Positions 472 to 32,014 of a stretch of DNA of 53,133 nucleotides are shown piece after piece; the first letter of the stretch is position 1, and the number at the start of each line of letters is the position of its first letter. The translations under genes were made by a program, and so were the position numbers. The notes under the pieces are model-generated. The model searched no databases. It saw only the letters and a list, made by a program, of their open reading frames with translations, and was not told the DNA's origin. Source of the stretch: a virus (Duplodnaviria > Caudoviricetes); the IMG/VR virus record IMGVR_UViG_3300032116_000282, positions 1 to 53,133 of that record; one strand, written 5' to 3'.

Positions 472-1872
472 CTATTCTGCTTTCGCTTTCGCTTTCGACT
501 GTTTCACAAATCCGATATCGACTCCGCCGAAGCATCGATAGTACGGGCTGACTTCTCCCTTAACCTCCCTATACGTAGTCCATACGCTCGAAGTCATATC
601 TCCCCCAATGTAGTTGGTAACTAGTGCCACCATTGCCGACATTGAAGCGGGGGACGTCTTGGCCCAAAGATATTTCTTCTTGGCTTGTGACTTCTTGTCA
701 TTCTTGATTCGTTCGAATAGATCCGAGAATACCATAGAGAACGGTCCACTGTCCGCTGTAGTTGCTCCGAGTGCTCCGAGGAATCCTTCGACAAGTTCCC
801 AGTCGATTACCAAGGGTTCATCTTGAAGGATTGCGGCTTTCGCTGCGATCTTCCGTTCAGCGTATTCCTCAGGGGTCTCGGAAGGATCTCGGACGATTGA
901 CGCAAGCCGTTCGTTAGTTGCATCCTCTCCGTTGGATGCCAGAACGAGAGCCGTTGCAATGACTGCGGGGGAGAACAATTCCGAAAATTGCCTATCGTAC
1001 TTCCCGGATTGACTTCGTTGCGATTCGAAAACGTAGGTGACGAATCGCGTGACTTCATCCTCTCCACCGAGTCTATCGACCAAGTCGAACCGCTCTTCCT
1101 GGGGGAGTTTGTCGCCAGTGGAACTAACGTCGTTACCCTTCATTCTCTCCGAGATACACCCCGTTAATTTCTTTCGCAAGTCAATCAGAGACTTGTCTCG
1201 GAGTCCCTTCATTACCGCTAACGTATCGTGTTCACCCGATAGCTTGGTTTGAACCGCTTCAACGACTTCCAACGATATGATCGTGTCGTCGGTAGTGTCG
1301 TCGTCGGTCGATTTCCTTGCCCTTGCCTTGTCCGCTAGGTCACGCCATTGCGGGGGCAATCCCAGGTGAATGTAAATCGTTCCGAGTGGTAGCCCGGCGG
1401 CCCGAATAAGCATTAACATTCCGTACCGATGCTGGCCCGAGATGATAGTACCATCCCAACAGTAGGTAATCGGGTCCATTGCAGACAAGCCCCATAAGCC
1501 ACGACTTCGCACGTTGCTATATGTACCGAGTTTGCCGATTGGACCAACACGAGAGGGACTGTAACGCCTATTGTTGGGGTTACGTGTTGCGACAAAGGAT
1601 TCCTTGCCGATGGTAATGAAGGGGAGACTCCCTTCCCCTGCGGCTTCCAAGCCCATAAGAAATTCCAGAACGCCGGGATTGTCCAAGTCTACTTGGTACA
1701 CTTCGGAGAACTCCGAAACGTGTTGATTAAGCGTTGCTATCGCATCGCTAGTGAGTTTGGCGAAACGGTTTGCACTAGATGCCGCAAGTCGGCTTGCTTC
1801 GTTCTGTGGGCCAATGCAATGCTTTGCAAAGGCTGATTGCAATTCGGCTACGGACGACAACTTCTTGACCAT
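472..1872 (-). CDS. ParB/Srx-like (DGQHR-type) N-terminal domain protein
   Basis: Motif series NxxNRR..G-L-W..PI.Y..DG.IISGQHRY..G-L..D..R.R..D resembles phage ParB-like/DGQHR proteins; GGGG upstream of ATG. Confidence 0.65.
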   Translation of the reverse strand: MVKKLSSVAELQSAFAKHCIGPQNEASRLAASSANRFAKLTSDAIATLNQHVSEFSEVYQVDLDNPGVLEFLMGLEAAGEGSLPFITIGKESFVATRNPNNRRYSPSRVGPIGKLGTYSNVRSRGLWGLSAMDPITYCWDGTIISGQHRYGMLMLIRAAGLPLGTIYIHLGLPPQWRDLADKARARKSTDDDTTDDTIISLEVVEAVQTKLSGEHDTLAVMKGLRDKSLIDLRKKLTGCISERMKGNDVSSTGDKLPQEERFDLVDRLGGEDEVTRFVTYVFESQRSQSGKYDRQFSELFSPAVIATALVLASNGEDATNERLASIVRDPSETPEEYAERKIAAKAAILQDEPLVIDWELVEGFLGALGATTADSGPFSMVFSDLFERIKNDKKSQAKKKYLWAKTSPASMSAMVALVTNYIGGDMTSSVWTTYREVKGEVSPYYRCFGGVDIGFVKQSKAKAKAE

Positions 1873-3801: not shown

Positions 3802-4302
3802 CTACTTTTCACTCAGAGTAGTCTTATCTACGATAATCCTCTCCTCATGCTTTTCCTGGGGAGGATCTGGGAAGGAGAGATAGATGAGGTTCAGTGTGTG
3901 ATTCATGAGGGTACTAGAGAATGGTAGCCCTTGTTGTTGTGCTGAATCTCTGAGCCATGATAGGATTGTTCGTTGGTTACGACGACATCCTTCTACTCCC
4001 CAAGCATCCATGATTGCAGCTCGTTCTTCACAGTTGCAAGTAGGATCTTTAGCTACGAACCATGAGAGGATCGAAGCTAGCTTAGTTCCAGGTCCGGTTC
4101 CCACTTTATGGAGCTTCGGTAGTCCAATGGAGGTTAGCACTCCATCGGCTATAAGCGTGGTCACGTGGTTAATACTTCTGGGTTTTTTACACAGAGAACA
4201 TGCCTTGCAATCTTCCTGGGAGGGGGAGTACTCTGTGTCTGTGAGTAGAGAGATGATGTTGCAGGTTTCATACTCAGTGTAGTATTCACAACGTTCGGTC
4301 AT
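3802..4302 (-). CDS. Cys-motif protein (CxxCxxC and CxC), candidate redox partner
   Basis: CKACSLC and GPGTKL..CNCEER..MD.WG..C motifs; ATGA overlap with the upstream gene. Confidence 0.75.
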   Translation of the reverse strand: MTERCEYYTEYETCNIISLLTDTEYSPSQEDCKACSLCKKPRSINHVTTLIADGVLTSIGLPKLHKVGTGPGTKLASILSWFVAKDPTCNCEERAAIMDAWGVEGCRRNQRTILSWLRDSAQQQGLPFSSTLMNHTLNLIYLSFPDPPQEKHEERIIVDKTTLSEK

Positions 4303-5447
4303 TGACTCTTTCCTCTTGGTCTAGCATTTCTCCATTCTTCCCAGTCGATACCGGTTTTATATTGGTCACTGATCCACTTTCTTCCACGTTCAAGAGTGAC
4401 TAAGTGCCAGTGTACTGGGTGAGCACTATGGAAGAACATTCTCTCTGTGATCCAGTCGAGTTTATAGTTCCTCTCCAAGTCCCAAGGAAGCCAGTAGTCC
4501 CACATGGTTTGTCCGATACCGAACTCCATCTGGGGTAGACTCCTTACGTGTTCTGGGAATAGAAGGAAAGCATCTAGTCCCCAATCTTCTGGTTTGGCTG
4601 TACTGTAATCGTTTTCCCAGTTGTATCGAATACCGGTAGCTATCTCTTTGTTGGCATAGCTTCGTAACAATCGAGCTTGATCTCCATAGATAGCAATATC
4701 TGAATTGATCAGAAGGATTGGATTGTCTATCTTTAGGCTTATGTCCATAAGACTATTGATACGTTGGGTTGGGAACTCATACATTGTAGTAACGTTGGGA
4801 CATTCTACCCAGGTATCAACTTGAGGATACATAGAAGTAAGTCGTTCAATTTCCTCAGCCGTATTAACAGCAATGATTCTCAATCCGAAATACTTCCAAG
4901 AGTTAAGGCATCTTTCTTGTACGTCGAGATGCTTTGGAAGTAGAGAAAGAGAAGTGACTGCTGGAAAAGGTAGGCGAGGTTGTTGAAGTTTTCCCCAAGT
5001 AATGTCAGGACGATAGAGGAGTTTTGCTTCCTCTAATGTGAAGGTTGGTTTACCAAGTTTGATGTTGACTTCATTGTGGATCATCACACCCCATTCAAAG
5101 AATGCTTCTGGGGAGGAGAAGTCTGGTGGATGGATTGTGATAATTGCTTTAAAATCCTCTTGACAAGAACATTGAGCTGGGATAAAGTATTGCCACATCT
5201 CGAAGAATACTGGATCACACCCACGGTATCGGTGTAGAAATAACCATGCTCTCCGTCCTTGATATGCTGTTGTTGCAGCAGTATCCTGGGAGAGTCTTGG
5301 TGTTTCCTGTACCAGCCGTCTTTGTTCGGCAGTACGTGGTTGTGGGACTTTCAAGAGTTCTCTTGTTGGAGAATCTTGTGCATCTGATCTTATGAAAACA
5401 GCTCCACCAAACGGATTGATAATTGTACGTTGTGTTGGTCTGGTCAT
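4299..5447 (-). CDS. Erv1/ALR-family FAD-linked sulfhydryl oxidase domain fused to a putative GT-A glycosyltransferase-like domain
   Basis: aa 64-145: GRRAWLFLH ... IPAQCSCQEDF ... W-x4-HNEVNIKLGKP, matching Erv GxxxWxxLH / Cys pair / HNxVNxxLGKP; C-terminal ILLINSDI, GLDAF and WDYWLP motifs. Confidence 0.8.
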   Translation of the reverse strand: MTRPTQRTIINPFGGAVFIRSDAQDSPTRELLKVPQPRTAEQRRLVQETPRLSQDTAATTAYQGRRAWLFLHRYRGCDPVFFEMWQYFIPAQCSCQEDFKAIITIHPPDFSSPEAFFEWGVMIHNEVNIKLGKPTFTLEEAKLLYRPDITWGKLQQPRLPFPAVTSLSLLPKHLDVQERCLNSWKYFGLRIIAVNTAEEIERLTSMYPQVDTWVECPNVTTMYEFPTQRINSLMDISLKIDNPILLINSDIAIYGDQARLLRSYANKEIATGIRYNWENDYSTAKPEDWGLDAFLLFPEHVRSLPQMEFGIGQTMWDYWLPWDLERNYKLDWITERMFFHSAHPVHWHLVTLERGRKWISDQYKTGIDWEEWRNARPRGKSQ

Positions 5448-6916
5448 TATGGTTTGGTTAGATTAGCAGCCAAGAAGGTGACGTTGAATGTAGCTGTAGC
5501 AGCAGGCATTATGTGATGTCCGGACAATGTAACTGTAATAAGACTGATTGGGAAACAAACTGATTGTGGACTATCAGTACCTTGATCTACATTGATGGTA
5601 GCTGTAGAATCATATCCCAATATACCCCAATACTTAGGATTACATACTTGACACTCAGGTGTACCGCAAGTAGTTATCCAACAGCATGTGCTATTATAAC
5701 ACATATATGGAACACTTGGAGGGACTCCTGCCATACCACATCGTTTAGTTTCAGATGGTTGACCGGTTAAGTAGAAAGGTGTAGTAAAATCTTCTGGGCA
5801 AGCTAGACCACTTATATTACTACATGACACACAACCATTAGATCCTATTAACAAAAGAGTAATACAAGTAGGATATGTCGGTGCTTCACCGATCCATGTT
5901 CTATCACAATTAAATGTTTGGGTTCTATCAGCACACTGAAGTTCACCACATCGTACACAAGCTACTCCATCTTCGCATGTTCCACCAGGACCACAGACGA
6001 ATCCACACTTCCCTGCACAATTGAAGTTCAATACAGTTGCTGTCCAAGTACATGTCTCTATTTCTTCTGGGATAATTTGAATACACTTACTGGTAAAGCA
6101 GATTTCATCCAAGTAGCCATAGATCCAACAACTGGGTACACATCCTCCAGCTCCGGTACAATTAGGTTTACCGTCAATTGTATGTGATGTTAGAGTTGGT
6201 TCATCATCATAAAGATTTAGACGACAGAAGTAATACTTTCTTGACCCTCCATCTAATCCTTCCAGGAGACTTGCAAACCCCCAGGGAGGGCAGTCCCCAT
6301 CACCACAAGTATCACAGTCATTATCTGAAAATGAAGTATCGTCTGGACAATCGATACAATCACTACATGTGAAGTCAACAGTGTAAACATAATTCTGGTA
6401 GATCATTTGATATGGTTCTACCTCGACTTCATACACCGACATTAGATACCATTTACATACTGGTGTCCCATCACAGATGAATTCACCTTTACCATAGAAG
6501 ATGACTAGATTGCCAGTTTTATATCGAATTTCCATTCGAGATCGGTACTCAGCATACCATCGACTATAGCAATTCTTTAGTATCTCTGTCGGAGGATCTG
6601 GAATACAGCATTCTTGCTCTGTGACTGGACAACTAACTGTTCCGGTTGTGAAAGTTCCACTTGGAGCTTTGACCCAATGTTCATCTGTATCGTGTATTGC
6701 TTCGTAAGATAGATTCTGGGTCCAAGCACTACAGTAAGTGTTCCAAACTCCGGCTCCACCTTGTGTGAATTCTTTACTGAAGCAACAACCACCTACAGTA
6801 CCGTTCCATCCATCAGCAACTGGTGTCCATCCTGTTACAGAAATCTTAGGTGGAACTATACCTTCTGCCGGGCAACAAGCATCTACACAGCAATTAAAGA
6901 GGCTCCAACAGGTCAT
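5447..6916 (-). CDS. Cysteine-rich (~47 Cys) putative tail-tip or receptor-binding protein
   Basis: 489 aa, ~10% Cys, no signal peptide, at the distal end of the tail module. Confidence 0.7.
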   Translation of the reverse strand: MTCWSLFNCCVDACCPAEGIVPPKISVTGWTPVADGWNGTVGGCCFSKEFTQGGAGVWNTYCSAWTQNLSYEAIHDTDEHWVKAPSGTFTTGTVSCPVTEQECCIPDPPTEILKNCYSRWYAEYRSRMEIRYKTGNLVIFYGKGEFICDGTPVCKWYLMSVYEVEVEPYQMIYQNYVYTVDFTCSDCIDCPDDTSFSDNDCDTCGDGDCPPWGFASLLEGLDGGSRKYYFCRLNLYDDEPTLTSHTIDGKPNCTGAGGCVPSCWIYGYLDEICFTSKCIQIIPEEIETCTWTATVLNFNCAGKCGFVCGPGGTCEDGVACVRCGELQCADRTQTFNCDRTWIGEAPTYPTCITLLLIGSNGCVSCSNISGLACPEDFTTPFYLTGQPSETKRCGMAGVPPSVPYMCYNSTCCWITTCGTPECQVCNPKYWGILGYDSTATINVDQGTDSPQSVCFPISLITVTLSGHHIMPAATATFNVTFLAANLTKP

Positions 6917-6922
6917 AATAAA

Positions 6923-7708
6923 TTAGCATTCAGTAAAGACGGCCATCCACCTACCAACATACTCACATGCAAATGCTCGTTTCAAAGCATCAATTGGAGT
7001 TGTTCTACTTGGATTCCAAATCATGATATCTAAAGTATCATCAGCCCAAAATGGTGTAGATGTTTGGGGTTTAACAACTGTACACAAAGCACTACCACCA
7101 GCAGCAATTCCACCAGTCTTTGTAACCACATAAAGCCCGGCTCGGTATCTCCTGGCGATGTGGACCATACAGTGGGATTTAGTGTTATTGATGTTACCGA
7201 TGATCTCAGCTCGACCCATGAGATCGTATGTGAATACACCATTTACTATATCTATTCCACGATAACTGGGGAGAGACGAGGATGGTACTGTTCCTTCGAG
7301 GGACAACCAGGACATGCCAGTCATCAATACCTTACCTGCTCGTTCTTGGGTAATAGCTTCTTGTGCAATCCCCCAGGAAGGAAGCCAGCCGTGATCTGTT
7401 TGATTGTAATCAGCTAGCATGTCCACTTCAAAACAGAACTCGTTTGGTACTCTTGTTGCGTTATCTATGGCATTGGTATTGAGTTCAAAGATCGGAGTTC
7501 GAATCAGAACTGGTTGATATGGTTCAATCCTATCTGTGCTAGATGCAGCAGACGAGAGTTGACCTATGATCTCCAGTCTGGGTTCCTGTCGGTCCAGTGC
7601 AAAATCCGTTATCCTGGGGGAGGATTCAGACTTGAAGAGTTGGTTTAGAGTGCGACTCTTAATCGCTTCTCTGACTGGTGTTCCTGGACGAACAGGTTTA
7701 AATGTCAT
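6923..7708 (-). CDS. Putative tail-tip protein
   Basis: Position after tape measure and hub-like gene; beta-rich sequence. Confidence 0.55.
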   Translation of the reverse strand: MTFKPVRPGTPVREAIKSRTLNQLFKSESSPRITDFALDRQEPRLEIIGQLSSAASSTDRIEPYQPVLIRTPIFELNTNAIDNATRVPNEFCFEVDMLADYNQTDHGWLPSWGIAQEAITQERAGKVLMTGMSWLSLEGTVPSSSLPSYRGIDIVNGVFTYDLMGRAEIIGNINNTKSHCMVHIARRYRAGLYVVTKTGGIAAGGSALCTVVKPQTSTPFWADDTLDIMIWNPSRTTPIDALKRAFACEYVGRWMAVFTEC

Positions 7709-8835
7709 AATAGAAACTGATTGAAGTCTTGAGTATCGTAATATCCATACACCGTTCGGTGGCTGGGGATTCTAAGAATACCTCCAGCAGTGTTTGCTAG
7801 GATTTTCTTTTGGTAGATGTACGAGACAATTGACCATCCAGAATAGATGCCGGTTCCCATCAGTGGATTAGCATAAGCTGATGGTGGGAAGGATGAATCA
7901 CCGATAATATCGTACTGTTGAGTGTAGTCAATTACTGGTGGGTTAGAACTAACAAAGTCATCGGATGGATCGGTGGGTATACTGTTTGGTTGTTGGTAGA
8001 AAGCGAAGTTTGTTTTGACTTCGAATTCAAGAGTGAGTGGTACTATTTCATACAGATCACTTTCACCACTGTATCCCATAAACATCACACTCTCAGGAGC
8101 AAACCCGAAGAATGGAAATCTGTTGAGGCAGGTGATCAAACGAGACAACCTACGAACGTAAGCGTAGGTGAATCTATTCGGTGGAAGATATTGTGTGATC
8201 TGAAATTTGAATTCACGAGCATATACTTCTGCTCCAGCGATTTCTTCTTCAGATACACCAATAGGATACCACAATCCAGCAGTAAATGGGATAGCTTCTC
8301 CAGCCGGAAGTGCAAGGGCTTTTTGACATTCCAGAACTTTTGCTTTCTGAATGGTCATCTTGCTTGCACTACCATTGAATGAGACTTGGGTATATCTCTG
8401 GCTGTTCTGTTCACCAGCAGATGGACCTGTTTCTCCACCACCAGTTCCAATGCTAAGATTGCTACCGTTGTCATCTGGGATGGAGTATGTGATAGACACT
8501 CTCCATCGAGCAAAGTTCATTTGTTTGGCTTCCATGCTGTCAGCATATAGCATGACAGCATTATTGTCGTCCAACCAAAAGAGGTATGTCGTTGGGAATT
8601 GACCCCAGAATACACCCATCAATTCTTTTTGAACACTCGTGTCGTCGAAGATGAGTTCGGTGTTAGTTCCTGGGAGGTAGCTGGTAGTTGCATTAGCTAA
8701 GAATGTCTCTGACTGAATAACGAATACGAAAGTCTTTGAGATACTCTTTTTGCTTACAGAGAAATTTCTGGATTCACCTTCAATTTCAATGTAGTCAACT
8801 GAATCAGGACCACCATAGTCATTTACATCAGCCAT
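7705..8835 (-). CDS. Putative distal tail / hub protein
   Basis: 376-aa ORF just downstream of the tape measure gene; synteny. Confidence 0.55.
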   Translation of the reverse strand: MADVNDYGGPDSVDYIEIEGESRNFSVSKKSISKTFVFVIQSETFLANATTSYLPGTNTELIFDDTSVQKELMGVFWGQFPTTYLFWLDDNNAVMLYADSMEAKQMNFARWRVSITYSIPDDNGSNLSIGTGGGETGPSAGEQNSQRYTQVSFNGSASKMTIQKAKVLECQKALALPAGEAIPFTAGLWYPIGVSEEEIAGAEVYAREFKFQITQYLPPNRFTYAYVRRLSRLITCLNRFPFFGFAPESVMFMGYSGESDLYEIVPLTLEFEVKTNFAFYQQPNSIPTDPSDDFVSSNPPVIDYTQQYDIIGDSSFPPSAYANPLMGTGIYSGWSIVSYIYQKKILANTAGGILRIPSHRTVYGYYDTQDFNQFLL

Positions 8836-9118
8836 TATTAAATTCCCTTGCCGCTTCGTTTAGAACAACATTGAGTTCATTACGGTCGTAGAACTGGTAA
8901 ACTTTCTTGAGATACTCGATCGCTTCTAGTCGATTGATTTTAACTAGTTGCGGTTTTCCGTTCATCTCAATAACAGTAAGGGGACGGAGTTTGCTTGGAA
9001 CAAAGAATGCTCTATAGGTTTCATAGAACAGCGGCACGATCTCATTTTTCTGGGAGGAGAGAGACCTTAGTAGCTGGTGTGCTAGTGCTGATTCTTGTTG
9101 TCCTTGGATTATGGTCAT
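8828..9118 (-). CDS. Hypothetical protein
   Basis: 96-aa ORF overlapping both neighbours in operon fashion. Confidence 0.6.
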   Translation of the reverse strand: MTIIQGQQESALAHQLLRSLSSQKNEIVPLFYETYRAFFVPSKLRPLTVIEMNGKPQLVKINRLEAIEYLKKVYQFYDRNELNVVLNEAAREFNNG

Positions 9119-11847
9119 CCTATGCCTCCACCTGTTACTACAGCTCGTTTGATGCCACGGAGTTCTTCAAGTTGCTCCTTCTCGATTTCTTTACCGTCTT
9201 TGAATGACTTGAGGTAAGCTCGTGTGTCACTCACACCACCAGTAACTGCTTTGACAGATTCAATAATTGCTTCACCAACAGCTTGAGCTTCAGCACCACC
9301 CCAGAGTTTCCTGGTGGGATCTTGTCCTGCTGCTTCTTGTTGCATCTCTGCAATCATAGCTTGACGTTCTATCATTTGTTGTTCAAGTTGTTGAGTGAGG
9401 AAAGCTATTTGTTTGCCCATCAATTCTTGCCAACTACCGGAACCAGCGTTAGCAGCATTAACTGTTCCTGCACGGGCAGCAGCCATAGCTCCAGTGTCTT
9501 GGTTCATGATTGCTTCGATTTCTTTAGCTCGCCTCTTACGTTCGATTTCAATTCGAGCTTTTGCCATTGAAGCATTTACTTCATAAATACTCTGATTATT
9601 CCTTGCATTTTGTTGTATTCTAGCTCCTGCTCCACCGAGTCCAGGTAGTTCTGATACTACCTCTCCAATGGCGTTTTGAAACTTTGCTAGGAATTCCATC
9701 AAAATGGAGTTAAGTTCAATGATTGCTTTGAATAGACCGGAGATAAAGAAGTCAATTCCCTGGATAATAGAAGTAACGATACCAGATATACTTCCTCCAG
9801 AGAATGATCCCATGATGTCCCCAAATGCATCCATTACTGGACTGGCTAGCACACTGGCTGCATTGGTGAGTCCATGATAGAGTGATCGAACGATGACTTC
9901 AACACTCTTGTAGATTTGTTGGAAGAATACGACAACGTATTCTACGTTGTACATGAAGACATTCCATGCAGCAATCAGTTGGTTTCGTATGATTGCGATA
10001 ACTCCCTGGAAGGCTGCACCGATAGCATCGAATCCTGTTTGGGAGAATCCTTCTTTAAATGCTGTGAAACCTATTCTCAATAGTTCAAATGCAGGAGAGG
10101 CGTATGTTGCAATTCGGCTGATTTGAGAGATAGCTCCTGCAATTCCACGACCAAGTGCAGCAAAAGCATTAGCGATGACCGGGATCTTGTCTCCAAAGAT
10201 AAGGAGAAAGTTTAGAGCCATCCCAACTGCATTCCAGGAGAATACAAATCTTGCTAGAGTAGTAGAGAATTTAAGAAATCCCATACTCAAGCTCATCAAT
10301 CCAAATCTGGTCGCCTTCATTTTCTGGAGGAGGAGACCTTCATGGATTAGATTAGCCATTCCTTTTGATTTGCCTATGTTTGCAAGATTGGCTCCCTTAG
10401 CAGACATTCTTAGATCCATAGCCTTTTGCATACGAGCAACTTTAGCTGCTTGCATTGCATAAGCTGAGGGTTTATTGAAAGCTACTGCTGCTCCTCCAAT
10501 AGATCCGAGCATAAACTTTCCAACACTAGCTATTCCTTTAAAGCCAGTTTGTAGTCCACCCACTACAACTGAGAGTCGAGCAAGGACGAAGGAAAGTGTT
10601 AGTGATGCTGCACCGATAGCAATGAGAACTGGTGGAATTGCAAACAGTGTTAGGAACAACGCTTTATTTTCCATAACAAACTGGCGACTATATCGTGTTA
10701 CTCCAGCAATGGCGTTTGCTAGAGCACTGATTTCTGGAGTAACTGCTTCACCGATTTCTAAACCAAGAACATGCAATGCACCAAACAATCGACGAGTAGC
10801 ACCACCAAATTTGGATTCCATTTCAATAGCAGCAAGCCGAGATTCTGCTCCTGCTCGTCTGATGCTTTTAGTAAATGCTTCTACTCGGTCAACTTCCATT
10901 GCAGCAGTAAAAGCACGAGCACCACGAATATTGAATACATCTTGAAAGAATTTAACTTTATCGAGTTGATTCATCGAAGAAGTTAATTTGACAATGCTGG
11001 CTGAAGTTGCAGCTAAATCTACGCCCCCACCCTCTTTCATGATGATGTTAAATGATGGGAATTTGGATTTAATTACATCCAAATTGTTAATCATGTTCAA
11101 CATCATAGTGTTCAATGACGTACCAGCAAGAGATCCCTTAAGACCTGCTTCAGACATCTGAACGAAGTAACCCATAAGTTCTTGAACAGAAATACCGAGA
11201 ACTTGGGCGGTACCTCCGGCATATTTAAATGATTCTCGGAGATCGGCAATCTCAATGGTACCGAGTCGAGTTGCTTTCAATAGTTGAGAAGTTAATTCGG
11301 TACTTGTTTTCATCCTACGATCTAGGGAATCTGTAGCACCAAATAATTCAAAGTTTCTAACAAGATTTGCTACTAGATCAGCAGATTCAGTTAAAGAGTA
11401 GTTAGTTCCTTTTGCTAAATCGATTACAGATTGGAGTGATCCTTTAATTTCATCTGCTGAAAATCCAGCTTGTGCAAGAGCAACCGCTGCTTCTCCTACT
11501 TTGTCGGCTGTAAATGAAGTTGTTTGTCCGAGTTCTAGAATTGTATTTTTTAGATCAGTAACAGTTGCTACTTGTTCTTTAGTCTTATTTCCGAAGTATC
11601 CTAGTTTAACTGTAAGGTTAAGAATGATATCTTCGAACTTAGCAAAGTTCTTTAGAACAGCACCACCGGCCATTCCAGTAAGCAATCCACCACCGAAAGC
11701 ATTTGTAGCTGCATCTCGGAATGCCCGAGAAGCTGACATCATTTTCGAACTTAATCCGTTCACAACACCAGCAAATTGCTTGGTTGCTTTATCGGTAAGT
11801 TCAACAACGATGACCGCTTTACCTGCTGTAATGCTTTGACGGGACAT
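9115..11847 (-). CDS. Tail tape measure protein (TP901-like core)
   Basis: 910 aa, helical Ala/Gly-rich; ELGQTTSFTA..ALAQAGF, ESFKYAG and AGLKGSLAGT motifs; hydrophobic middle. Confidence 0.92.
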   Translation of the reverse strand: MSRQSITAGKAVIVVELTDKATKQFAGVVNGLSSKMMSASRAFRDAATNAFGGGLLTGMAGGAVLKNFAKFEDIILNLTVKLGYFGNKTKEQVATVTDLKNTILELGQTTSFTADKVGEAAVALAQAGFSADEIKGSLQSVIDLAKGTNYSLTESADLVANLVRNFELFGATDSLDRRMKTSTELTSQLLKATRLGTIEIADLRESFKYAGGTAQVLGISVQELMGYFVQMSEAGLKGSLAGTSLNTMMLNMINNLDVIKSKFPSFNIIMKEGGGVDLAATSASIVKLTSSMNQLDKVKFFQDVFNIRGARAFTAAMEVDRVEAFTKSIRRAGAESRLAAIEMESKFGGATRRLFGALHVLGLEIGEAVTPEISALANAIAGVTRYSRQFVMENKALFLTLFAIPPVLIAIGAASLTLSFVLARLSVVVGGLQTGFKGIASVGKFMLGSIGGAAVAFNKPSAYAMQAAKVARMQKAMDLRMSAKGANLANIGKSKGMANLIHEGLLLQKMKATRFGLMSLSMGFLKFSTTLARFVFSWNAVGMALNFLLIFGDKIPVIANAFAALGRGIAGAISQISRIATYASPAFELLRIGFTAFKEGFSQTGFDAIGAAFQGVIAIIRNQLIAAWNVFMYNVEYVVVFFQQIYKSVEVIVRSLYHGLTNAASVLASPVMDAFGDIMGSFSGGSISGIVTSIIQGIDFFISGLFKAIIELNSILMEFLAKFQNAIGEVVSELPGLGGAGARIQQNARNNQSIYEVNASMAKARIEIERKRRAKEIEAIMNQDTGAMAAARAGTVNAANAGSGSWQELMGKQIAFLTQQLEQQMIERQAMIAEMQQEAAGQDPTRKLWGGAEAQAVGEAIIESVKAVTGGVSDTRAYLKSFKDGKEIEKEQLEELRGIKRAVVTGGGIG

Positions 11848-22924: not shown

Positions 22925-24472
22925 TTAGATGAAAGCGAAGTTCAAAATGAGTGTTGGGGCAGAACCAAAAGTGGTGTTGTCGTTATTAGCAGAACCAGCG
23001 GTGAATGCTGCAGCAATACCGGTACTAAAGTACATACCACCATCCGGTAATGGAATCATAAAGTTACCTACCGCCCCAGGAATGGCATAACATTGAACGT
23101 CAGTAGTACCACCTAGTGTGACAGCGGTTGCATTAAAGATGTGGAGAAATGCAGCAACTGTTCCAGCATTGCTAACATTTAGCATTGTCAATCGTCCAGC
23201 TCCAGCTTTGATTGATATAGAAGCTGGTGTTGTTACGTTCTGGTTTCCTCTTCCAAGAGTTTGACCGTTAGTAACAGTGGATGATCCAAGGACTACACCG
23301 CCACTGCTAGCATCGGTTAGGATTCTTCGTGTGTTCGTTCCGTCCCATCCACCTACTGGTACAGGGTGGGCTGTTGGAGCAGCACCGACTGCGATGTTAC
23401 CACCTACAGACTGAACACCGTTGACACCTCCGTTAACCACAGCTTGGCCACCGAACTGTGCCATGTTGATCGCAGCGTTAGTTTGTATAGTCACAACTGG
23501 ATTGCTTGCTGGGAAAAATGCCGAAAAGTTCTTCAGCACTGCAATTGCAATTGGGATGCCTGTTCCAGCAGTAGTAACCTGTGCCCGAAAGTATCTTCCA
23601 GCAGCGGGAATGACCCACTGGCCTACTGCTGTTGCTGTACTAGTTGGACTAGCACCACCCGCAGTAGGCCAAGCGTATGCATTAGTCCAGGATGTCAGGT
23701 CATTGGATACTTGGAACGTGATCGTGCCGGTGAACGTACCTTGAAGTTGGAGCAGGACAGTTCCGTATCCAGTCGTGTCTACAATTAGGATTGGTCCAAC
23801 CGTAGCAGGGTTACGAGATCCTTGGAATACTGTACCATCTGCGGGGACCACCCCTCCTCCTGGGGAGACTGCTATAGGTGTGATATATCCTGCTGGAGAG
23901 GTTCCAGATACAGGCATCTTGAGTCCTGGGTCAGCATCGATCAAGTATGAATCTGTACGGTTGATCGGTGACTTGGAGGACCGTAGTGCGTAGGTTCCAC
24001 TTACTGTTCCTTTGAATGTTGGAGCAGTAACAGCACGAAAGTATCTTGCAACAACTTGAACCACGAATCTATCTGGGGAGAAGATTGTATCGACTAGGGT
24101 GTTGTCAGCATTGGTTGATTGTGCTGCACAAGCAAACCAAGTAGTACCATCCATACTAGCTTCAAGTCCGATACCTCCAGACCATAAGCCAGTCAACTGT
24201 AGTTGTATGGTTTCTTCGTTTGCTGTATCGATTGCTGTGAACAGAACAGTAGATGGAGCAGTGATTGGACCGAATGCGGTTCCTACAGATGGATCGGCAT
24301 GATATGTCGGCAATGGATTGGTAGAAAGTTCACTGAGTGTCTTGCTACCTTCTGCACCGGAGACATGGACCAGTCGAACTAGTTGTACCTTGGTTACGTC
24401 ACCGGAGTATGTTACTTCATCACAAGCAACCGCCGCCCCACTTCCTGGGGTATACCCTACGTTGTCTGGCAT
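22925..24472 (-). CDS. Multi-domain putative virion fibre / adhesin protein
   Basis: Internal duplication (QLQLTGLWSG..EASMDGTTW vs LLQLQGTFTG..QVSNDLTSW); C-terminal domain resembles 29800..30132. Confidence 0.65.
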   Translation of the reverse strand: MPDNVGYTPGSGAAVACDEVTYSGDVTKVQLVRLVHVSGAEGSKTLSELSTNPLPTYHADPSVGTAFGPITAPSTVLFTAIDTANEETIQLQLTGLWSGGIGLEASMDGTTWFACAAQSTNADNTLVDTIFSPDRFVVQVVARYFRAVTAPTFKGTVSGTYALRSSKSPINRTDSYLIDADPGLKMPVSGTSPAGYITPIAVSPGGGVVPADGTVFQGSRNPATVGPILIVDTTGYGTVLLQLQGTFTGTITFQVSNDLTSWTNAYAWPTAGGASPTSTATAVGQWVIPAAGRYFRAQVTTAGTGIPIAIAVLKNFSAFFPASNPVVTIQTNAAINMAQFGGQAVVNGGVNGVQSVGGNIAVGAAPTAHPVPVGGWDGTNTRRILTDASSGGVVLGSSTVTNGQTLGRGNQNVTTPASISIKAGAGRLTMLNVSNAGTVAAFLHIFNATAVTLGGTTDVQCYAIPGAVGNFMIPLPDGGMYFSTGIAAAFTAGSANNDNTTFGSAPTLILNFAFI

Positions 24473-24927
24473 TATTGCATTCCTAATCTGGAATCGTACA
24501 TTGCTTGTGTTACGTCGTCAGCATTGATTATAGGCCGACGAAGTGACAGTGATTTGAGTGCAGTGTTTTCTTCTGTGGTGAATAGACCACCAACCGTAAG
24601 TCCATCAATGAGAGTCAACACGCCAGGATCACCAAAGTCAACACCACCATTGTTTGGTTCAAGCCATTTCAAGAATCGTTTGATGATTGTTGAATGTGTT
24701 TGTCCTGCAACAGCATATCCTTCTAGTTTTTGCAAGATTGTTTCGGCAACTAAAGGACCAAGAGATTTGTACAATCCTCGGTCAGTGAGTTGTTCAATGT
24801 TCATGTTGACTAGATCAGCGATCTCCATGCATCTAACTGCACAGTTTGCATCGTCTCCTACGCTTGCTAACTGTGTTGCATGCTCGTCAGAATCAATCAG
24901 TGCTTTTAGTGCTTCTGGTGTCATCAT
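24472..24927 (-). CDS. Hypothetical protein (possible fibre chaperone)
   Basis: 151 aa, translationally coupled to neighbours. Confidence 0.55.
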   Translation of the reverse strand: MMTPEALKALIDSDEHATQLASVGDDANCAVRCMEIADLVNMNIEQLTDRGLYKSLGPLVAETILQKLEGYAVAGQTHSTIIKRFLKWLEPNNGGVDFGDPGVLTLIDGLTVGGLFTTEENTALKSLSLRRPIINADDVTQAMYDSRLGMQ

Positions 24928-25655
24928 TGAACTCCAATAATTGGTATTGCTGCTGCGTCAGTTGTTAGCGTCTTGGTAAAGTGAGTTGTTGATCCGTTGG
25001 TTCGTTTGATGGTTAGTGTTCCACCAGAGATTGACCATTCTAACAGAGCTAGGATAGCTGTCGCTAACGTGTGTTCTCCTGTTGTCGCTTCTACGTTAGA
25101 TACGTTGCGGGTAAGGATTCCGTCAGCAATTTCATTGATAGCGGTTAATGCTAAAGCTGTACTATCAATAGCATTAGGGGCAAATTTAGATGAAGTAAAA
25201 CTACCGTCAGCAATAGTAGTCAACGGATAATCAGAAGGATCTGCTTGTACGGCTTTATCGAGCCATCTTTGAACATCAACTGGCTGAGTTGCAGTTTGAT
25301 AGTCAAATGCGTCTAGTTCGAATTCTAGTAGAACTGGAAGCATATTTGTAACACCTCGTAGTCGGACTTGTGCCCAGGTTTTGCCTACCGCAATTGCGGT
25401 GTTAGGAATACCGATCTCAATTGCCCCAGTTACAGAACCATCAGCCACAATGCCACCGGAAGTAAATGTTCCTAGAGTTCCGGCAACCGGTGTCACCGTG
25501 GTCCATGTCGATTGATTTTCACGCCGATACTCGAATACAAGACCAGACGATGCGTGAGTGATTGCAAGACCACCACCAGTTGTGCTGGAAGTGTCCTGAA
25601 CAAATACTGGGAGCGTCAAGGATGTTGTACCGGCTTTGATTTTTCTACGTGCCAT
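24924..25655 (-). CDS. Putative virion structural protein
   Basis: Thr/Gly-rich, 243 aa; coupled to neighbours. Confidence 0.6.
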   Translation of the reverse strand: MARRKIKAGTTSLTLPVFVQDTSSTTGGGLAITHASSGLVFEYRRENQSTWTTVTPVAGTLGTFTSGGIVADGSVTGAIEIGIPNTAIAVGKTWAQVRLRGVTNMLPVLLEFELDAFDYQTATQPVDVQRWLDKAVQADPSDYPLTTIADGSFTSSKFAPNAIDSTALALTAINEIADGILTRNVSNVEATTGEHTLATAILALLEWSISGGTLTIKRTNGSTTHFTKTLTTDAAAIPIIGVQ

Positions 25656-26749
25656 TATCCTAGACCTCCGTTAAAACCACGTGGGAAAAGCAAGCCGCCA
25701 CCTGCGGGAGCGGTATAGTTTCCAGCAAATAGAAGAAGACCGTTAATGTAATTTTTGAAATAATTCCATCCACCAGCACCATCATCTTGAACACCATGAA
25801 CAAAGTTGATTCCATCAGCAAACTTGTCGAACATAGTCGAGTAACTTGAATAGTCATAAATGAAACCACCAGTTGGACCTTGGCTATTAACGGTTGTTGC
25901 AAATACAACCTTCCAAGGAGGTGTTCCGCCTAAAGAATTCAAGGTGAACGATGAATCAAACCAATGTCGAGTGTGCTGAGTACCAGTTCCAGTCAGAGAC
26001 GGGAATGTGTAAAGAGCCGTGCCTCCTGGGGCAACACCATCTGAGTAGATTTTCCCAGGAAGCACATTACTAAGTATATTCCATCCCTCAAGCGGAATGT
26101 CACCTACTTCTGCTGGAAGTACAAAACCACGCTCAAGGGTGTTGTTCGTGTAGACGGTAGATACTCTACCTCCGATAGGCTGACCGTATGGCTCCGTACC
26201 CTGGACAACCACAAACGGCATTTCAGTAACACTCCCACCGGCAACAGAAAATCCAACCGTTGATGTAGCAGGAGCGGAATTACATCCATATCGAAACGAC
26301 GTATCCGTACCGACTACAATCGCAGGATAGTCTACCGTTGGCGAAGCAGATGTGTTGTATATAACAAACCAAACAAGATCGTTCAGTGCAGGAGTGTGTG
26401 GGGTAGCAAAATCAAACTTAATCCAACATATATCAGACGATGGGTAGGTCATTGATGTAGATGAATCGAGCAATCCCGTTCCTGGTCGTGCGACCGCTGC
26501 ACCAGTTGAATCATAAATGTCACATTGCAACGTAATACTTGCACGTGTTCCAGTGGTCACATCGACCATACAATAAAATTCATTTATCGGATCTGTGTTA
26601 CGAGCACGATAACCAACAGTTATAGCTTGACCGGATGTTCGGTGAACGTATGCACTATTCAACGTGAAGCCGACTTTCGATCCAGAAGAAGCGTGTCCGC
26701 TTGCATTGATAGCCTGAAGATTTGCTGTTATGTATCCGGTAGATGCCAT
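25655..26749 (-). CDS. Putative virion adhesin-like protein, paralog A
   Basis: Shares LNSAYVHxTSGQ, ITLQCDIYD, TLNSLGGTPPW and GGGLLxPRxFxGG with the next gene. Confidence 0.7.
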   Translation of the reverse strand: MASTGYITANLQAINASGHASSGSKVGFTLNSAYVHRTSGQAITVGYRARNTDPINEFYCMVDVTTGTRASITLQCDIYDSTGAAVARPGTGLLDSSTSMTYPSSDICWIKFDFATPHTPALNDLVWFVIYNTSASPTVDYPAIVVGTDTSFRYGCNSAPATSTVGFSVAGGSVTEMPFVVVQGTEPYGQPIGGRVSTVYTNNTLERGFVLPAEVGDIPLEGWNILSNVLPGKIYSDGVAPGGTALYTFPSLTGTGTQHTRHWFDSSFTLNSLGGTPPWKVVFATTVNSQGPTGGFIYDYSSYSTMFDKFADGINFVHGVQDDGAGGWNYFKNYINGLLLFAGNYTAPAGGGLLFPRGFNGGLG

Positions 26750-27831
26750 TATATACCTCCATCAAAGCTTCTAGGATACAACAACCCTCCACCACCAGCT
26801 TGCGGGTATCCAATCAAAAAGGATCCAATTGGACAAAACCCAGGATACTCCACCCATACACCTCCGCTTTCTTGGAAACCATTACACCAGTTCACACCGT
26901 CGATTGCGGTCTCGAAAATCGTTGAGTAGCTTGAATAATCATCGATAAATCCACCTCCTGGAGTTGATGTGGTGCTACCCATATTGTAGACAAGCCGCCA
27001 AGGAGGAGTACCACCTAGTGAATTCAATGTGAACGGAGTATCGAAAAAGAATATGCCGTGAGCACTACTGGCTAAACTTGGCCACGTAAATGACCACAAG
27101 TTAGCACCACCAGGAGCAACACCATCTGACTGTATCTCAAAACTTGTTACGCTGGTTGAAGGAGCATTGAATCCAACCAACAACAAATCACCAGCCGCAG
27201 CGTCAATTCGAATTCCACGACGAAGCGAATTGCTCGTAAATGGGCTTGCTGATCGAGTAGTCAATTGCCCATAACATTGACCATCAATAACATACCCCAC
27301 TGGAGTTTCACTACCACCACCCGAACCAGTAGAGGAAAAACCATTAGATGTTTGCATTGCTGTCGGATCCCCACCGTAAGGAAAACCACCGGCAATAGCA
27401 TTTCGGATGCCTGGGTAGTCAACAGTTGGGGAACTCGACGTGTTGTGAATAATAAAATATATTTCCTGCCTTACCGACACTGTTATTGGGGTTGCAAATT
27501 GAAATCGAATCCACTGTGTATCAGCCGCTGGGTACGTTGTTGTCGTTGAGCTATCAAGAAGTGTTGAACCTGGCATCCAATTGGTCGATGATGTGTCATC
27601 GTAAATATCACATTGAAGGGTAATGTTCCCGCGTGTTCCATACGTTGTATTCAAAAACACAAAGAAATCAGTGATTTCTCCGGCTACCGGACAGATAAGC
27701 GCAAACGCAAGACCCTGTCCAGAAGTCTTGTGGACATAAGCTGAGTTAAGCAGGAACTCTGTCGCAGATCCCGATGTGCCTACCCCGCACGTAGGAAACC
27801 GATAAGGATAATAGGTTGAATACAAAGCCAT
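26749..27831 (-). CDS. Putative virion adhesin-like protein, paralog B
   Basis: Tandem paralog of 25655..26749. Confidence 0.7.
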   Translation of the reverse strand: MALYSTYYPYRFPTCGVGTSGSATEFLLNSAYVHKTSGQGLAFALICPVAGEITDFFVFLNTTYGTRGNITLQCDIYDDTSSTNWMPGSTLLDSSTTTTYPAADTQWIRFQFATPITVSVRQEIYFIIHNTSSSPTVDYPGIRNAIAGGFPYGGDPTAMQTSNGFSSTGSGGGSETPVGYVIDGQCYGQLTTRSASPFTSNSLRRGIRIDAAAGDLLLVGFNAPSTSVTSFEIQSDGVAPGGANLWSFTWPSLASSAHGIFFFDTPFTLNSLGGTPPWRLVYNMGSTTSTPGGGFIDDYSSYSTIFETAIDGVNWCNGFQESGGVWVEYPGFCPIGSFLIGYPQAGGGGLLYPRSFDGGI

Positions 27832-28376
27832 TACAGTTCAGGTGGTTGCCCGCTCCCATCCCATGCATCAAGTGCAGCAACAAATGTGTTGTAGCGATCA
27901 GCCGCAGCCGTCCGAAGTGGTCCCTTGCTAGCTTCGAGTGCTAATTCAGCATTGTAAGCTGTTCGTTGTGCATCGAATTCAATTTCGGTTAATGCTGCAA
28001 ATGGTCGTCCACCACCTAGAGCATAGAACGAGTTTCGGATTGTAGAGTTCACTCCAGGAATCTGACTGATCAAAAACCAAAAGCGACCTGCATGCAATGC
28101 CTGTGTTGTAAAAAGCATCGAAGCCTTGGCACTATAGAGTAAAACCCATGCGTCATCGAACCGCTTGCGTGTATTTCCTGAGGAGGCTTCGTATGGGGTG
28201 ACAAGTGATCCAGTCATGCCATTCGGTCCCTCTTGCCAGTACGCACCTTCAAGCAACCAATCAACTGCATCGGATGCACGAATGTTTGATGCCGAAAGAG
28301 TTTGCAGAGTATTGACAATTTGTGTGTCGGTGCCGGTTAGACCGAGTTCTAATGACTTCAGATATGCTACGGTCAT
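27831..28376 (-). CDS. Hypothetical protein
   Basis: 181 aa, coupled ORF. Confidence 0.6.
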   Translation of the reverse strand: MTVAYLKSLELGLTGTDTQIVNTLQTLSASNIRASDAVDWLLEGAYWQEGPNGMTGSLVTPYEASSGNTRKRFDDAWVLLYSAKASMLFTTQALHAGRFWFLISQIPGVNSTIRNSFYALGGGRPFAALTEIEFDAQRTAYNAELALEASKGPLRTAAADRYNTFVAALDAWDGSGQPPEL

Positions 28377-28378
28377 TA

Positions 28379-28954
28379 CTAAATCTCCATAACTTGCGTT
28401 GGGGTCATATATGAGCGAATGCGATCAAACCATGAAGCATGACCGCAGACAAGCGGATGATCCGACAGCCACATGGCGTCCCATAGTTCGGAAGGTTCCA
28501 TGCTTGCTGGTCGCCAGAAATCCGGCTCGTTCCAAGCCTTAATCGCTTTCTGGGGAAGTGAGTTAAACCAACGGTAATCGTTCTGGGTGAAGTTGAGATA
28601 AATATCTCGGATTGTTGGACCCATAACGTCCTTAGCAGTGCCGTGAGTCCTACCCCCAAGTACGTGACCTATTTCGTGAACATACACATAAGCAGCTTGA
28701 GCTACCGATTGCCACTTGAACATTCCGTGAGCGTAGATCGTCCACCCACTAGTCCATGCTGCCCAAGGCTGGCCGTTCGTTGCTTTACCGTTCTTAGTGA
28801 GAACAAAGTTTATCTGTGCTCGGTTAATGTTCTGAACGAAGTTAACGTTGAAGTATCGACCAAATCTTCCGAATGCAGTAGGAAGAATATTGCGATTCCA
28901 GTACGGTGTACTAGCCCCTTTCTCAATCAATACTCTCCAAGTAATTGTTCTCAT
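28379..28954 (-). CDS. Zinc metalloprotease (metzincin/matrixin-like)
   Basis: HEIGHVLGGRTH (HExxHxxGxxxH, one residue longer than the canonical metzincin motif) followed by a Met-turn-like VMGP. Confidence 0.75.
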   Translation of the reverse strand: MRTITWRVLIEKGASTPYWNRNILPTAFGRFGRYFNVNFVQNINRAQINFVLTKNGKATNGQPWAAWTSGWTIYAHGMFKWQSVAQAAYVYVHEIGHVLGGRTHGTAKDVMGPTIRDIYLNFTQNDYRWFNSLPQKAIKAWNEPDFWRPASMEPSELWDAMWLSDHPLVCGHASWFDRIRSYMTPTQVMEI

Positions 28955-29790
28955 GGAGACAAGACCTCGTTGTCTTGGACTATTGCACCTACTGGGAGAC
29001 GCAATGGAGATCGTCTACCGGTCATTTGACGGGTACGATTTCCGATCACACTAATGTTGGTGGAATTTGGTCCAATCGTGATTGAGTGAAAACCAGTGAC
29101 TTCGACTTCATTGCCGATGATTTGGATGTCATCAAGTGGAGCATCAGTAACTGAATCCATCTGCCCGATTCCCTGGGAGATGGATTCTATCTTGTTGTAG
29201 GCAATCAGGAAGTTCTTGCATCCGTTTCGGAGTTGGATTGCATCGGAGTGATCACCGTCTCTCCATACTCCACCGAGTGATACACAGGACTTGCTTCCGA
29301 GACCATACTGGATGTCTCCATTAGGTAGTGTGCAAGTGGTTGGTTTTGGTGTGAAGTCGTGGAATCGATTACCTACGATTTGGAATCCTTCACCACCGGC
29401 AATGATCAGTCCGTCTTGTCGTACTGCAAAGTCACAGTCGATCCATGATAATCGTAGGCCACCACCACCAGCTACACCACGATTTGCATTACGGAGTTTA
29501 CATCCAATCCATCGAACGTCTCTTGCTGTGGCTCCGTATGCAATACCGTATCCACCCGCTGCTGTTCCGTCATTACCATTGGGTGCTTCAATTTGGCCAC
29601 CGAACCAATCGATGTTAGATCCACTGACTGAAACACCACGTACAGTTGCTCGATGAGCAATGATTGTAATTCGATTCGTGTAATTAGTTGGGATCTTAAT
29701 AAGTGGAAATATCCCACTCAGTTCTACGGTAAATCCACCGGTAGCTGCTGCTAGGATTCCACTGATTGTGTCTGGTGTAGCTTGAAGCAT
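28951..29790 (-). CDS. Right-handed parallel beta-helix protein (pectate-lyase-like, candidate depolymerase)
   Basis: Repeated I.GN.F / I.YN.I turns; DG.I and H.DAIQ motifs. Confidence 0.7.
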   Translation of the reverse strand: MLQATPDTISGILAAATGGFTVELSGIFPLIKIPTNYTNRITIIAHRATVRGVSVSGSNIDWFGGQIEAPNGNDGTAAGGYGIAYGATARDVRWIGCKLRNANRGVAGGGGLRLSWIDCDFAVRQDGLIIAGGEGFQIVGNRFHDFTPKPTTCTLPNGDIQYGLGSKSCVSLGGVWRDGDHSDAIQLRNGCKNFLIAYNKIESISQGIGQMDSVTDAPLDDIQIIGNEVEVTGFHSITIGPNSTNISVIGNRTRQMTGRRSPLRLPVGAIVQDNEVLSP

Positions 29791-29799
29791 GATCGTTCC

Positions 29800-30132
29800 T
29801 TATCGGTAAATGTTGATAATAACGGTATCTACTACAACTGCAACGTCATGGGAATCAGCAATACCGGCAGTGATCCGATAGCTTATACCCTGGGTGAAAC
29901 CACCGACTATTCCTGGGGAGACTACTAACATGCCATTCGGTGGGATGGCATATCGTAGTATTGGTGTATCACCTGGTACTGGAGTGGTAGCTTTGTTGTA
30001 GAGCTTAATGAAAGCTGCTGCTGCCCCAACATTAAAACACTCAAGTTTAACAAGTTGGTCATTCGGGTTTGAAGAAACAACGACACCAGTTGTTGTTGCT
30101 GGTTGAATAGCTGAGAACGGTGTTAATGTCAT
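29800..30132 (-). CDS. Small beta-sandwich protein, paralogous to the C-terminus of 22925..24472
   Basis: FNVGAAAAFIKLYN..P..YAIP vs SNAGTVAAFLHIFN..YAIP. Confidence 0.65.
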   Translation of the reverse strand: MTLTPFSAIQPATTTGVVVSSNPNDQLVKLECFNVGAAAAFIKLYNKATTPVPGDTPILRYAIPPNGMLVVSPGIVGGFTQGISYRITAGIADSHDVAVVVDTVIINIYR

Positions 30133-31545: not shown

Positions 31546-31550
31546 CTATA

Positions 31551-31955: not shown

Positions 31956-32014
31956 GAGGGAACTCCTAAAAGGTTAGAAAACAGTTTGCTCAATTTCATA
32001 GTGAAAAAGAGAGG

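Follow-up and report, generated by a model that had tools for sequence, protein, structure and literature searches.

The DNA analyzed in this study, virus record IMGVR_UViG_3300032116_000282, comes from an uncultured freshwater tailed phage (Duplodnaviria; Caudoviricetes) and is 53,133 bases long. This entire stretch is referred to below as the window. Nearly all of its long open reading frames (ORFs) are located on the minus strand. The tail end of the structural gene block carries, in order, a tape measure gene and ORFs of 96, 376, and 261 amino acids (aa), followed by three genes that we describe as a candidate maturation cassette (Table 1). These three code for a cysteine-rich protein of 489 aa, a 382-aa protein that joins an Erv/ALR-like, flavin adenine dinucleotide (FAD)-type sulfhydryl-oxidase domain to a domain with the glycosyltransferase A (GT-A) fold, and an accessory protein of 166 aa. 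An initial annotation, made from the sequence alone, had proposed three translationally coupled ORFs at this site. All three are present, and the TAATG and ATGA overlaps between them can be read directly. The same annotation placed them at the end of a tail operon, which fits their position after the tape measure gene and three ORFs of small to medium size.

Table 1. Coordinates of the cassette genes, of their domains, and of the tail genes that precede them in the window
Feature	Position	Strand	Remarks
489-aa Cys-rich protein gene	5447..6916	minus	47 Cys; N-terminal CC...CC motif; last structural gene of the tail module
382-aa enzyme gene	4299..5447	minus	Erv/ALR-like domain plus GT-A-fold domain; start codon within a TAATG overlap with the stop of the Cys-rich gene
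Erv/ALR-like FAD sulfhydryl-oxidase domain	4998..5276	minus	aa ~58-150 of the 382-aa protein
C93-S94-C95 codons	5163..5171	minus	CxC at the position of the Erv family redox CxxC; read directly
GT-A-fold (nucleotide-sugar transferase-like) domain	4314..4976	minus	aa ~158-378 of the 382-aa protein
166-aa accessory protein gene	3802..4302	minus	start codon within an ATGA overlap with the stop of the enzyme gene
Conserved C-terminal module of the 166-aa protein	3883..4110	minus	aa ~65-140
Tape measure gene	9115-11847	minus	PF10145, E=9e-27; 18 PHROG families, 13 named tail length tape measure protein
96-aa ORF	8828-9118	minus	upstream tail gene
376-aa ORF	7705-8835	minus	upstream tail gene
261-aa ORF	6923-7708	minus	upstream tail gene
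Upstream tail genes together	6923..11847	minus	place the Cys-rich gene in the last tail slot

The N-terminal domain of the 382-aa protein carries all of the Erv signatures that had been claimed for it, namely residues 64-72, C93-S-C95, and W119-x4-H124-N-E-V-N...GKP, and the profile and structure searches proposed as a check return Erv/ALR oxidases. The PF04777 family profile matches residues 81-142 (E=1e-10, 42.2 bits against a cut-off of 27.6), and a six-frame search of the record with this family yields one match (E=8e-13, 44.4 bits), compared with none in 14 control genomes. The 382-aa protein has no match in PHROG or NCBIfam. A profile built from 25 homologues retrieves 21 sequences from the PDB, of which 20 are Erv, ALR, or QSOX oxidases. 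E-values against the ALR, Erv1, and Erv2 structures range from 1e-13 to 1e-8 (best 1.4e-13), and the matches include pB119L of African swine fever virus (ASFV; 3gwl) and R596 of mimivirus (3gwn, 3td7).

An AlphaFold2 model of the 382-aa protein (mean predicted local distance difference test (pLDDT) 86.1, predicted template modeling score (pTM) 0.78) consists of a helical N-domain and an alpha/beta C-domain. The helices of the former (residues 56-73, 79-86, 95-105, 113-131, and 138-145) form a compact bundle of the kind found in Erv FAD-binding domains, with block pLDDT values of 86-96 over residues 61-150. A Foldseek search of BFVD with the N-domain finds a giant-virus sulfhydryl oxidase that is 33% identical over 114 columns, with a template modeling (TM) score by target of 0.73. 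Residues W68, P90, C93, C95, H124, N125, and V127 are invariant in 16 phage or prophage copies and H72 is nearly so, and W68, H72, C93, C95, H124, and N125 are invariant or nearly so in both this alignment and that of the 25 homologues. The W-x3-H motif in the first helix and the H-N-x-V-N motif in the fourth align with the same motifs of ALR and Erv1, and it is these residues that contact FAD in the Erv/ALR family. In a profile alignment to ALR, C-S-C lands on CxxC with a gap of one residue. Judging from these comparisons and the predicted fold, we consider the Erv/ALR assignment to be sound.

The cysteine pair varies within the family. Among 36 Erv-bearing homologues, 20 carry CxC, nine carry CxxC, one has CC, and one has no pair (five were not parsed). 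Many Erv-GT homologues (P0002-P0019 and others) also carry a zinc-ribbon-like segment with two cysteine pairs in their first 40-60 residues, which is absent from the window protein.

The second domain of the 382-aa protein, which did not feature in the initial annotation, has a GT-A fold. When the C-domain is compared to PDB structures with Foldseek, the matches include chondroitin synthases, a Leptospira glycosyltransferase, the fucosyltransferase WrtF, and RmlA (E=1e-7 to 1e-5, probability 1.0, TM score by target up to 0.62). The matches in BFVD are phage and giant-virus GT-A glycosyltransferases, including that of Mycobacterium phage Che8. The C-domain displays the Rossmann-like alpha/beta/alpha arrangement of nucleotide-sugar-binding folds, and its invariant residues are N248, D250, D292, W316-D-Y-W319, H340, and H343. 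The 382-aa enzyme is predicted to be bifunctional by architecture, and this combination of Erv and GT-A fold indicates that glycosylation is probably part of the function of the cassette.

Some homologues of this enzyme bear added GT8 or sulfotransferase domains (P0013, P0037), and the genes that reside beside members of the Erv-GT family include those for FkbM-type and class I methyltransferases (L002:9050-9610, L008:9033-9854). These methyltransferase, sulfotransferase, and GT8 neighbors and fusions suggest that a glycan is built and decorated, beyond the addition of a single sugar.

The 166-aa protein had been described as a CxxCxxC/CxC protein, and it indeed has eight cysteines, with C32, C35, and C38 forming CxxCxxC and C89 and C91 forming CxC. 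The alignment with its nine homologues has invariant residues that include G70, G72, W81, C89-x-C91, E92, R94, and C106, and an N-terminal segment with four cysteines (C5, C14, C32, and C35) is nearly invariant. There is no significant match for this protein in Pfam, PHROG, NCBIfam, or PDB, and the protein atlas returns unnamed viral clusters only. A stand-alone gene for the module follows Erv-GT genes in L037 and L042. Elsewhere, the module is attached to the C-terminal end of a GT domain of the window type (L050), lies within a 641-aa protein that also has a sub-threshold GT2 match (L004:10912-12837), or is fused to a GT8-like domain (L083-L088). Hidden Markov model (HMM) matches to its C-terminal part alone occur in L050, L004, and L089-L092. 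In relatives, the module is fused to GT-type domains and never to Erv alone, so it appears to track glycosyltransferases rather than Erv. Nothing in these comparisons shows a redox role for the protein. A complex prediction for the 382-aa and 166-aa proteins gives a score of 0.02 (mark 0.32), which speaks neither for nor against binding.

The 489-aa protein was said to have about 47 cysteines, and the count is exactly 47 (9.6%). By comparison, cysteine content averages 1.3% over 14 other long ORFs of the window, and the tape measure protein has none. The protein is without a hydrophobic stretch of transmembrane strength (top 19-residue Kyte-Doolittle mean 1.32), and it has six CxxC motifs in addition to its N-terminal CC...CC cluster. 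It has no match in Pfam, PHROG, NCBIfam, or PDB, whether to a known tail protein or otherwise, and nothing in the protein atlas. A word-indexed search finds a single relative, which is 94% identical, and an exhaustive HMMER pass over 1.84 billion representative proteins finds only four.

Among these few relatives, cysteine is by far the best conserved type of residue. It accounts for 14 of the 25 invariant alignment columns, and 84, 70, and 55% of the cysteines are retained where identity at other residues is 35, 24, and 19%, respectively. Most of the invariant cysteines lie outside CxxC knuckles, and in no case are both cysteines of one of the six CxxC motifs invariant. The pattern of conservation fits a disulfide scaffold better than zinc sites, though it proves neither. 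We therefore regard as improbable the alternative that these cysteines mainly bind metals (zinc or iron-sulfur) while the Erv domain serves some other purpose, such as acting on host thiol pools or on another phage protein. The six CxxC motifs and the CC...CC cluster are compatible with metal binding, and tail-tip proteins of the lambda type reportedly contain iron-sulfur clusters. However, 47 cysteines is far above the needs of known metal sites, and the recurrent overlap or adjacency of an Erv gene points to thiol oxidation of the Cys-rich protein.

The position of its gene makes the 489-aa protein probably a receptor-binding or tail-tip component. Like the genes for such proteins, it occupies the last slot of the tail module, and it is hypervariable within a gene order that is kept in related phages (L082-L088). 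The 96-, 376-, and 261-aa tail ORFs match no Pfam, PHROG, or NCBIfam family, and the 376- and 261-aa proteins have no sequence match in the PDB.

Some variation in this region is also evident in public data. Contigs from four DNA runs carry in-frame insertions or deletions of 3 nucleotides (nt) inside the Cys-rich gene (near 5652-5662 and 5944), and those from three public runs have an insertion of ~62 letters between the genes for the 376- and 261-aa proteins (7707-7708). No RNA data set was listed as carrying this sequence. The contigs point to a co-circulating variant strain, which we treat as a weak hint only. Its divergence is about 5.5% of sites over 4723-7708 compared with 2.3% over 7707-8835.

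A word-indexed search with the 382-aa protein finds 64 homologues, none of which is named. The sole match among 50,697 GenBank phage records is a giant virus filed there. Our scans yielded 19 viral, nine genomic, and 52 metagenomic loci. All nine genomic loci are from Planctomycetota assemblies, and these matches point to Planctomycetota as the host. To our knowledge, few phages of this phylum are known.

To examine whether Erv genes and Cys-rich genes occur together, every ORF was classified with HMMs of both domains of the 382-aa enzyme from one alignment (A1), and 74 loci were reduced to 56 clusters at 80% identity. A cluster was scored as paired if the adjacent upstream ORF on the same strand encodes a product of 200 aa or longer in which Cys makes up 4% or more. 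Clusters were not counted if they lacked upstream sequence or covered fewer than 170 aa of the GT domain. An adjacent Cys-rich gene is present in 11 of 15 Erv-bearing clusters but in only one of 25 that are Erv-less (Fisher P=6e-6). The co-occurrence that the initial annotation expected is therefore borne out by the raw counts, whereas independent contrasts are too few for a phylogenetic test to reach significance. The association is strong in counts but may not be independent of descent.

Among the Erv-bearing exceptions, L034 has a 301-aa gene product with 5.6% Cys and a CC motif, encoded 3 kb away on the other strand. The sole Erv-less cluster that is paired, L026, has a CxxC-rich N-terminal extension instead of Erv. 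A longer CxxC-rich extension in the place of Erv is seen in L016 as well as L026, and in both the upstream gene still carries a CC motif.

BLAST separates the Cys-rich partners into at least seven unconnected groups, and they can be aligned only within close lineages. They contain 4.4-9.6% Cys and all have an N-terminal CC or CCC motif, which in most partners is within about the first 25 residues. The representative loci contain 324 ORFs that code for 200 aa or more, and 14 of these have products with both a Cys content of 4% or higher and a CC within residues 1-25. Eleven of the 14 lie directly upstream of an Erv-bearing homologue, and one more is the L034 gene mentioned above. The N-terminal CC/CCC could be an interchain knot, a metal site, or a tag recognized by the enzyme. 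Another cysteine is often found one to three residues beyond this cluster (L002-L025, L045, L082-L088, L094; window 6872-6916). In L004, L011, L025, and L045, the gene pair follows tape measure genes, and in L024 it lies close to a portal-like gene.

An independent sample was obtained by searching for PF04777 in the genomes behind three loci. A complete Pirellulaceae genome (G001) carries a stand-alone Erv of 137 aa, of the CxxC type, whose gene overlaps the end of one for a protein of 411 aa that has a CC motif and contains 4.4% Cys. There is no GT domain in the 3.2-kb stretch that contains this pair. PF04777 is rare around this genome, being found in one of 301 genomes of a phylum sample and in four of 251 genomes of a family sample (two above the cut-off). 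This rarity of Erv in the putative host phylum fits a gene that is carried by phages. We also considered CxC as a marker of pairing, since it distinguishes the Erv-GT fusions (11 of 12 with CxC are paired compared with none of three with CxxC or no pair), but the paired CxxC-type Erv of G001 breaks this rule and the marker was rejected. A Pirellula-type assembly (G002, behind L024) has six PF04777 matches on six contigs (L093, L096-L100), and three of these are near-identical CxxC-type proteins of 426-489 aa with no Cys-rich neighbor in their short flanks.

A scan with the 166-aa protein alignment recruited additional loci (L082-L092). Seven of these (L082-L088) are sister phages of the window, with matching tape measure, 96-aa, 376-aa (43-59%), and 261-aa (33-43%) proteins. 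The slot after the 261-aa gene is always occupied by a Cys-rich gene (5.0-9.2% Cys), and six of the seven products have CC within the first 25 residues, whereas none of them matches the 489-aa protein by BLAST. In L082, the next gene codes for an Erv domain (CxC) fused to a different, GT8-like domain, and the homologue of the 166-aa protein is encoded three genes later. In L083-L088, this position holds a gene for the GT8-like domain joined to a complete 166-aa module, with no Erv detected. Erv is therefore found fused to two unrelated GT-type domains, which are that of the window and the GT8-like domain of L082. Across these arrangements, the Cys-rich gene is the constant around which Erv, the 166-aa module, and two unrelated GT-type domains are shuffled.

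With moderate confidence, we propose that the three genes form a maturation cassette for the cysteine-packed last protein of the tail module, in which an Erv oxidase is combined with a sugar transferase and an accessory protein. This proposal draws on which domains are present, on residue conservation and gene order, and on the repeated pairing with Cys-rich genes bearing the CC motif. From these we infer FAD binding, oxidase activity, the substrate, sugar transfer, location in the virion, and the Planctomycetota host. The 489-aa hypervariable tail protein would be the substrate of the cassette. The N-terminal Erv/ALR-type domain would bind FAD and use O2 to put disulfides into this protein within the host cytoplasm, with thiol oxidation proceeding through a CxC redox pair beside the flavin. 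The C-terminal GT-A-fold domain would transfer a sugar, most likely onto the same 489-aa protein, and the 166-aa protein would be an accessory that is tied to the glycosyltransferase part, perhaps acting as an adaptor or as a thiol-active helper. Thus, the phage probably matures its cysteine-packed tail protein itself, inside the cell.

The initial annotation had read the three genes as an oxidative-folding system like that of vaccinia virus. The Erv identity, the Cys-rich gene in the last tail slot, and the raw co-occurrence support this reading. The analogy to a three-protein relay is not supported, given that we detected no thioredoxin- or glutaredoxin-like partner and that the 166-aa module is fused to GT domains in relatives. 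The active-site pair also differs from the CxxC of the Erv family, and sister phages keep the Cys-rich gene in records where no Erv was found.

Several observations weigh against the maturation cassette. A redox CxxC beside the flavin was sought in the window protein, which has CxC (C93-S-C95) instead. The enzyme also has no shuttle cysteine pair (the C-x16-C structural disulfide is likewise absent), and no thioredoxin-like partner was found for it. In the C-domain, N248-S-D250 stands where GT-A enzymes usually have DxD, and the domain matches no Pfam family, with glycosyltransferase families sought at E up to 1. Five sister phages keep the Cys-rich gene in records (27-50% complete by CheckV) that yielded no PF04777 match, which means that Erv is not obligatory. 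An AlphaFold2 model of the 489-aa protein, made with five sequences, is poor (mean pLDDT 39.9), and a tail role for this protein is deduced from gene position only, as the 376-, 261-, and 489-aa proteins match no known tail family. With regard to the pairing, the Cys threshold was picked after the data had been seen, and three Erv-bearing clusters are without a Cys-rich neighbor. Two of these (L005 and L015) are CxxC types and the third (L009) has lost its cysteine pair. Furthermore, Erv-bearing members are clustered on the GT-domain tree, and there are only four to six independent contrasts, of which about two go in the expected direction, none in the opposite direction, and about two show no difference (median sign-test P 0.5).

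Some of these features would also be expected if the Erv-like domain were dead or had been repurposed, perhaps for docking or as a chaperone for the Cys-rich N-terminus. Glycosylation by the GT-A domain would then be the real chemistry, and the cysteines would either oxidize spontaneously after lysis in oxic water or stay reduced. The CxC in place of CxxC and the lack of a shuttle disulfide agree with such a domain, as do the sister phages without Erv, which always retain a GT-type domain and the 166-aa module beside the Cys-rich gene. The same can be said of the sugar-modifying neighbors (FkbM-type and class I methyltransferases and the sub-threshold GT2 match) and of the sulfotransferase and GT8 domains in homologues. 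We nevertheless consider loss of catalysis unlikely. Highly diverged copies retain the flavin-contact residues and both cysteines with little or no change, which is hard to explain without catalysis. Moreover, the Erv of L009, which has lost its cysteine pair, also lacks a Cys-rich neighbor, and the stand-alone Erv of G001, with no GT domain in its 3.2-kb stretch, has a Cys-rich partner gene.

The clustering of Erv-bearing homologues on the GT-domain tree, with too few independent contrasts for significance, might instead reflect inherited synteny, wherein neighboring genes descend together in one phage lineage and have no functional coupling. This explanation seems very unlikely to us. The partners have diverged past recognition by BLAST, yet they keep a cysteine content of 4.4-9.6% and the N-terminal CC. 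In addition, the pair is found in different structural-gene contexts, the pairing recurs with a stand-alone Erv that came from a separate search, and fusion partners are shuffled around the same Cys-rich slot. Thus, functional coupling within a maturation cassette remains our preferred explanation.

The window enzyme resembles the Erv/ALR oxidases (yeast Erv1 and Erv2 and mammalian ALR) in its above-cut-off match to PF04777, its helical domain, its W-x3-H and H-N-x-V-N motifs, and a cysteine pair at the active-site position. It differs from them by its CxC, by the absence of the C-x16-C structural and shuttle disulfides, by the GT-A fusion, and by its origin in a tailed phage. The bacterial cytoplasm is generally regarded as largely devoid of disulfides, and the virions of phages tend to contain little cysteine.

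Large eukaryotic DNA viruses provide the closest functional parallels considered here, which are the pathways of vaccinia virus (E10R/A2.5L/G4L), ASFV (pB119L), mimivirus (R596), and baculovirus (Ac92). As proposed for the window, a virus-encoded oxidase of the Erv type acts on virion proteins in a reducing cytoplasm. Unlike vaccinia virus, the window enzyme has no A2.5L-like or G4L-like (thioredoxin-fold) partner that we could find. It also differs from these pathways by its bacterial host, by the stop/start overlap with the gene for a presumed single substrate, and by the GT-like fusion. Two articles (PMC3509050, PMC10598087) describe the roles of Erv oxidases in large DNA viruses and treat Erv as a gene of eukaryotes and large DNA viruses. 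We found no description of an Erv oxidase in a tailed phage in the full-text literature (subscription journals and supplements were outside the scope).

Sugar transfer to phage virions also has precedents. Virion glycosylation of the Che8 type has reportedly been studied by experiment. The window is similar to the mycobacteriophages in that a GT-A-fold transferase is encoded beside structural genes, and the Che8 enzyme is among the fold matches, but it differs by the Cys-rich tail target, the lack of a Pfam GT family, and the oxidase fusion. In a genome note (PMC11256854), capsid glycosylation is inferred from two phage glycosyltransferases.

A GT-A-type glycosyltransferase and disulfide-forming enzymes occur in one cluster in the sublancin glycocin operon of the SPbeta prophage, where an S-glycosyltransferase and thiol-disulfide oxidoreductases act on one Cys-containing product. 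That product is a small secreted bacteriocin, however, and the oxidoreductases are of the DsbB and thioredoxin types and function outside the cytoplasm. No relation to the window by sequence came to light, though no search aimed at one was made.

A broader scenario, which we hold tentatively and consider doubtful, is that tailed phages of Planctomycetota use a modular, thiol-directed maturation of hypervariable, Cys-packed receptor-binding proteins that are marked by an N-terminal CC/CCC. The CxC Erv would be a new catalytic variant that works in cis with a GT domain and the 166-aa module, forming disulfides and attaching sugars (possibly to cysteine) in the bacterial cytoplasm. The CC/CCC would be a recognition tag or an interchain knot.

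If the proposed function of the cassette is true, the oxidative-folding strategy of poxviruses, ASFV, and mimivirus would extend to tailed phages, and the origin of viral Erv genes would become a question. The enzyme would also represent a natural, compact catalyst for producing disulfide-rich proteins in the bacterial cytoplasm, and its CxC active site makes a testable prediction on Erv chemistry. The GT fusion and the shuffling of modules around one hypervariable gene suggest an undescribed route by which Planctomycetota phages build and diversify receptor-binding proteins.

Elsewhere, the window carries replication and structural genes, including those for a family A DNA polymerase, a primase-like protein, a UvrD-type helicase, and a ligase, as well as the terminase large subunit, portal, and major capsid protein. 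A terminator-like site ~100 nt downstream of the cassette is at chance level (two found compared with 2.8 expected). Further downstream is the gene for a 466-aa protein (472-1872, minus strand) with no Pfam match at E up to 0.001. This protein has counterparts with 35-40% identity in L083-L088, again encoded just after the cassette. Two more small Cys-rich ORFs are present elsewhere on the minus strand. One (41834-42184) codes for 116 aa with nine cysteines and a hydrophobic, signal-like N-terminus. The other (33989-34201), directly upstream of the terminase gene, codes for 70 aa with six cysteines in zinc-ribbon-like spacing. Finally, the terminase and portal genes are separated by roughly 15 kb (22925-33000, minus strand), a block that codes for a subtilase (PF00082, E=2e-47) and has sub-threshold matches to right-handed beta-helix and F5/8 type C domains. 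The products of this block may be further proteins that are directed to the host surface.

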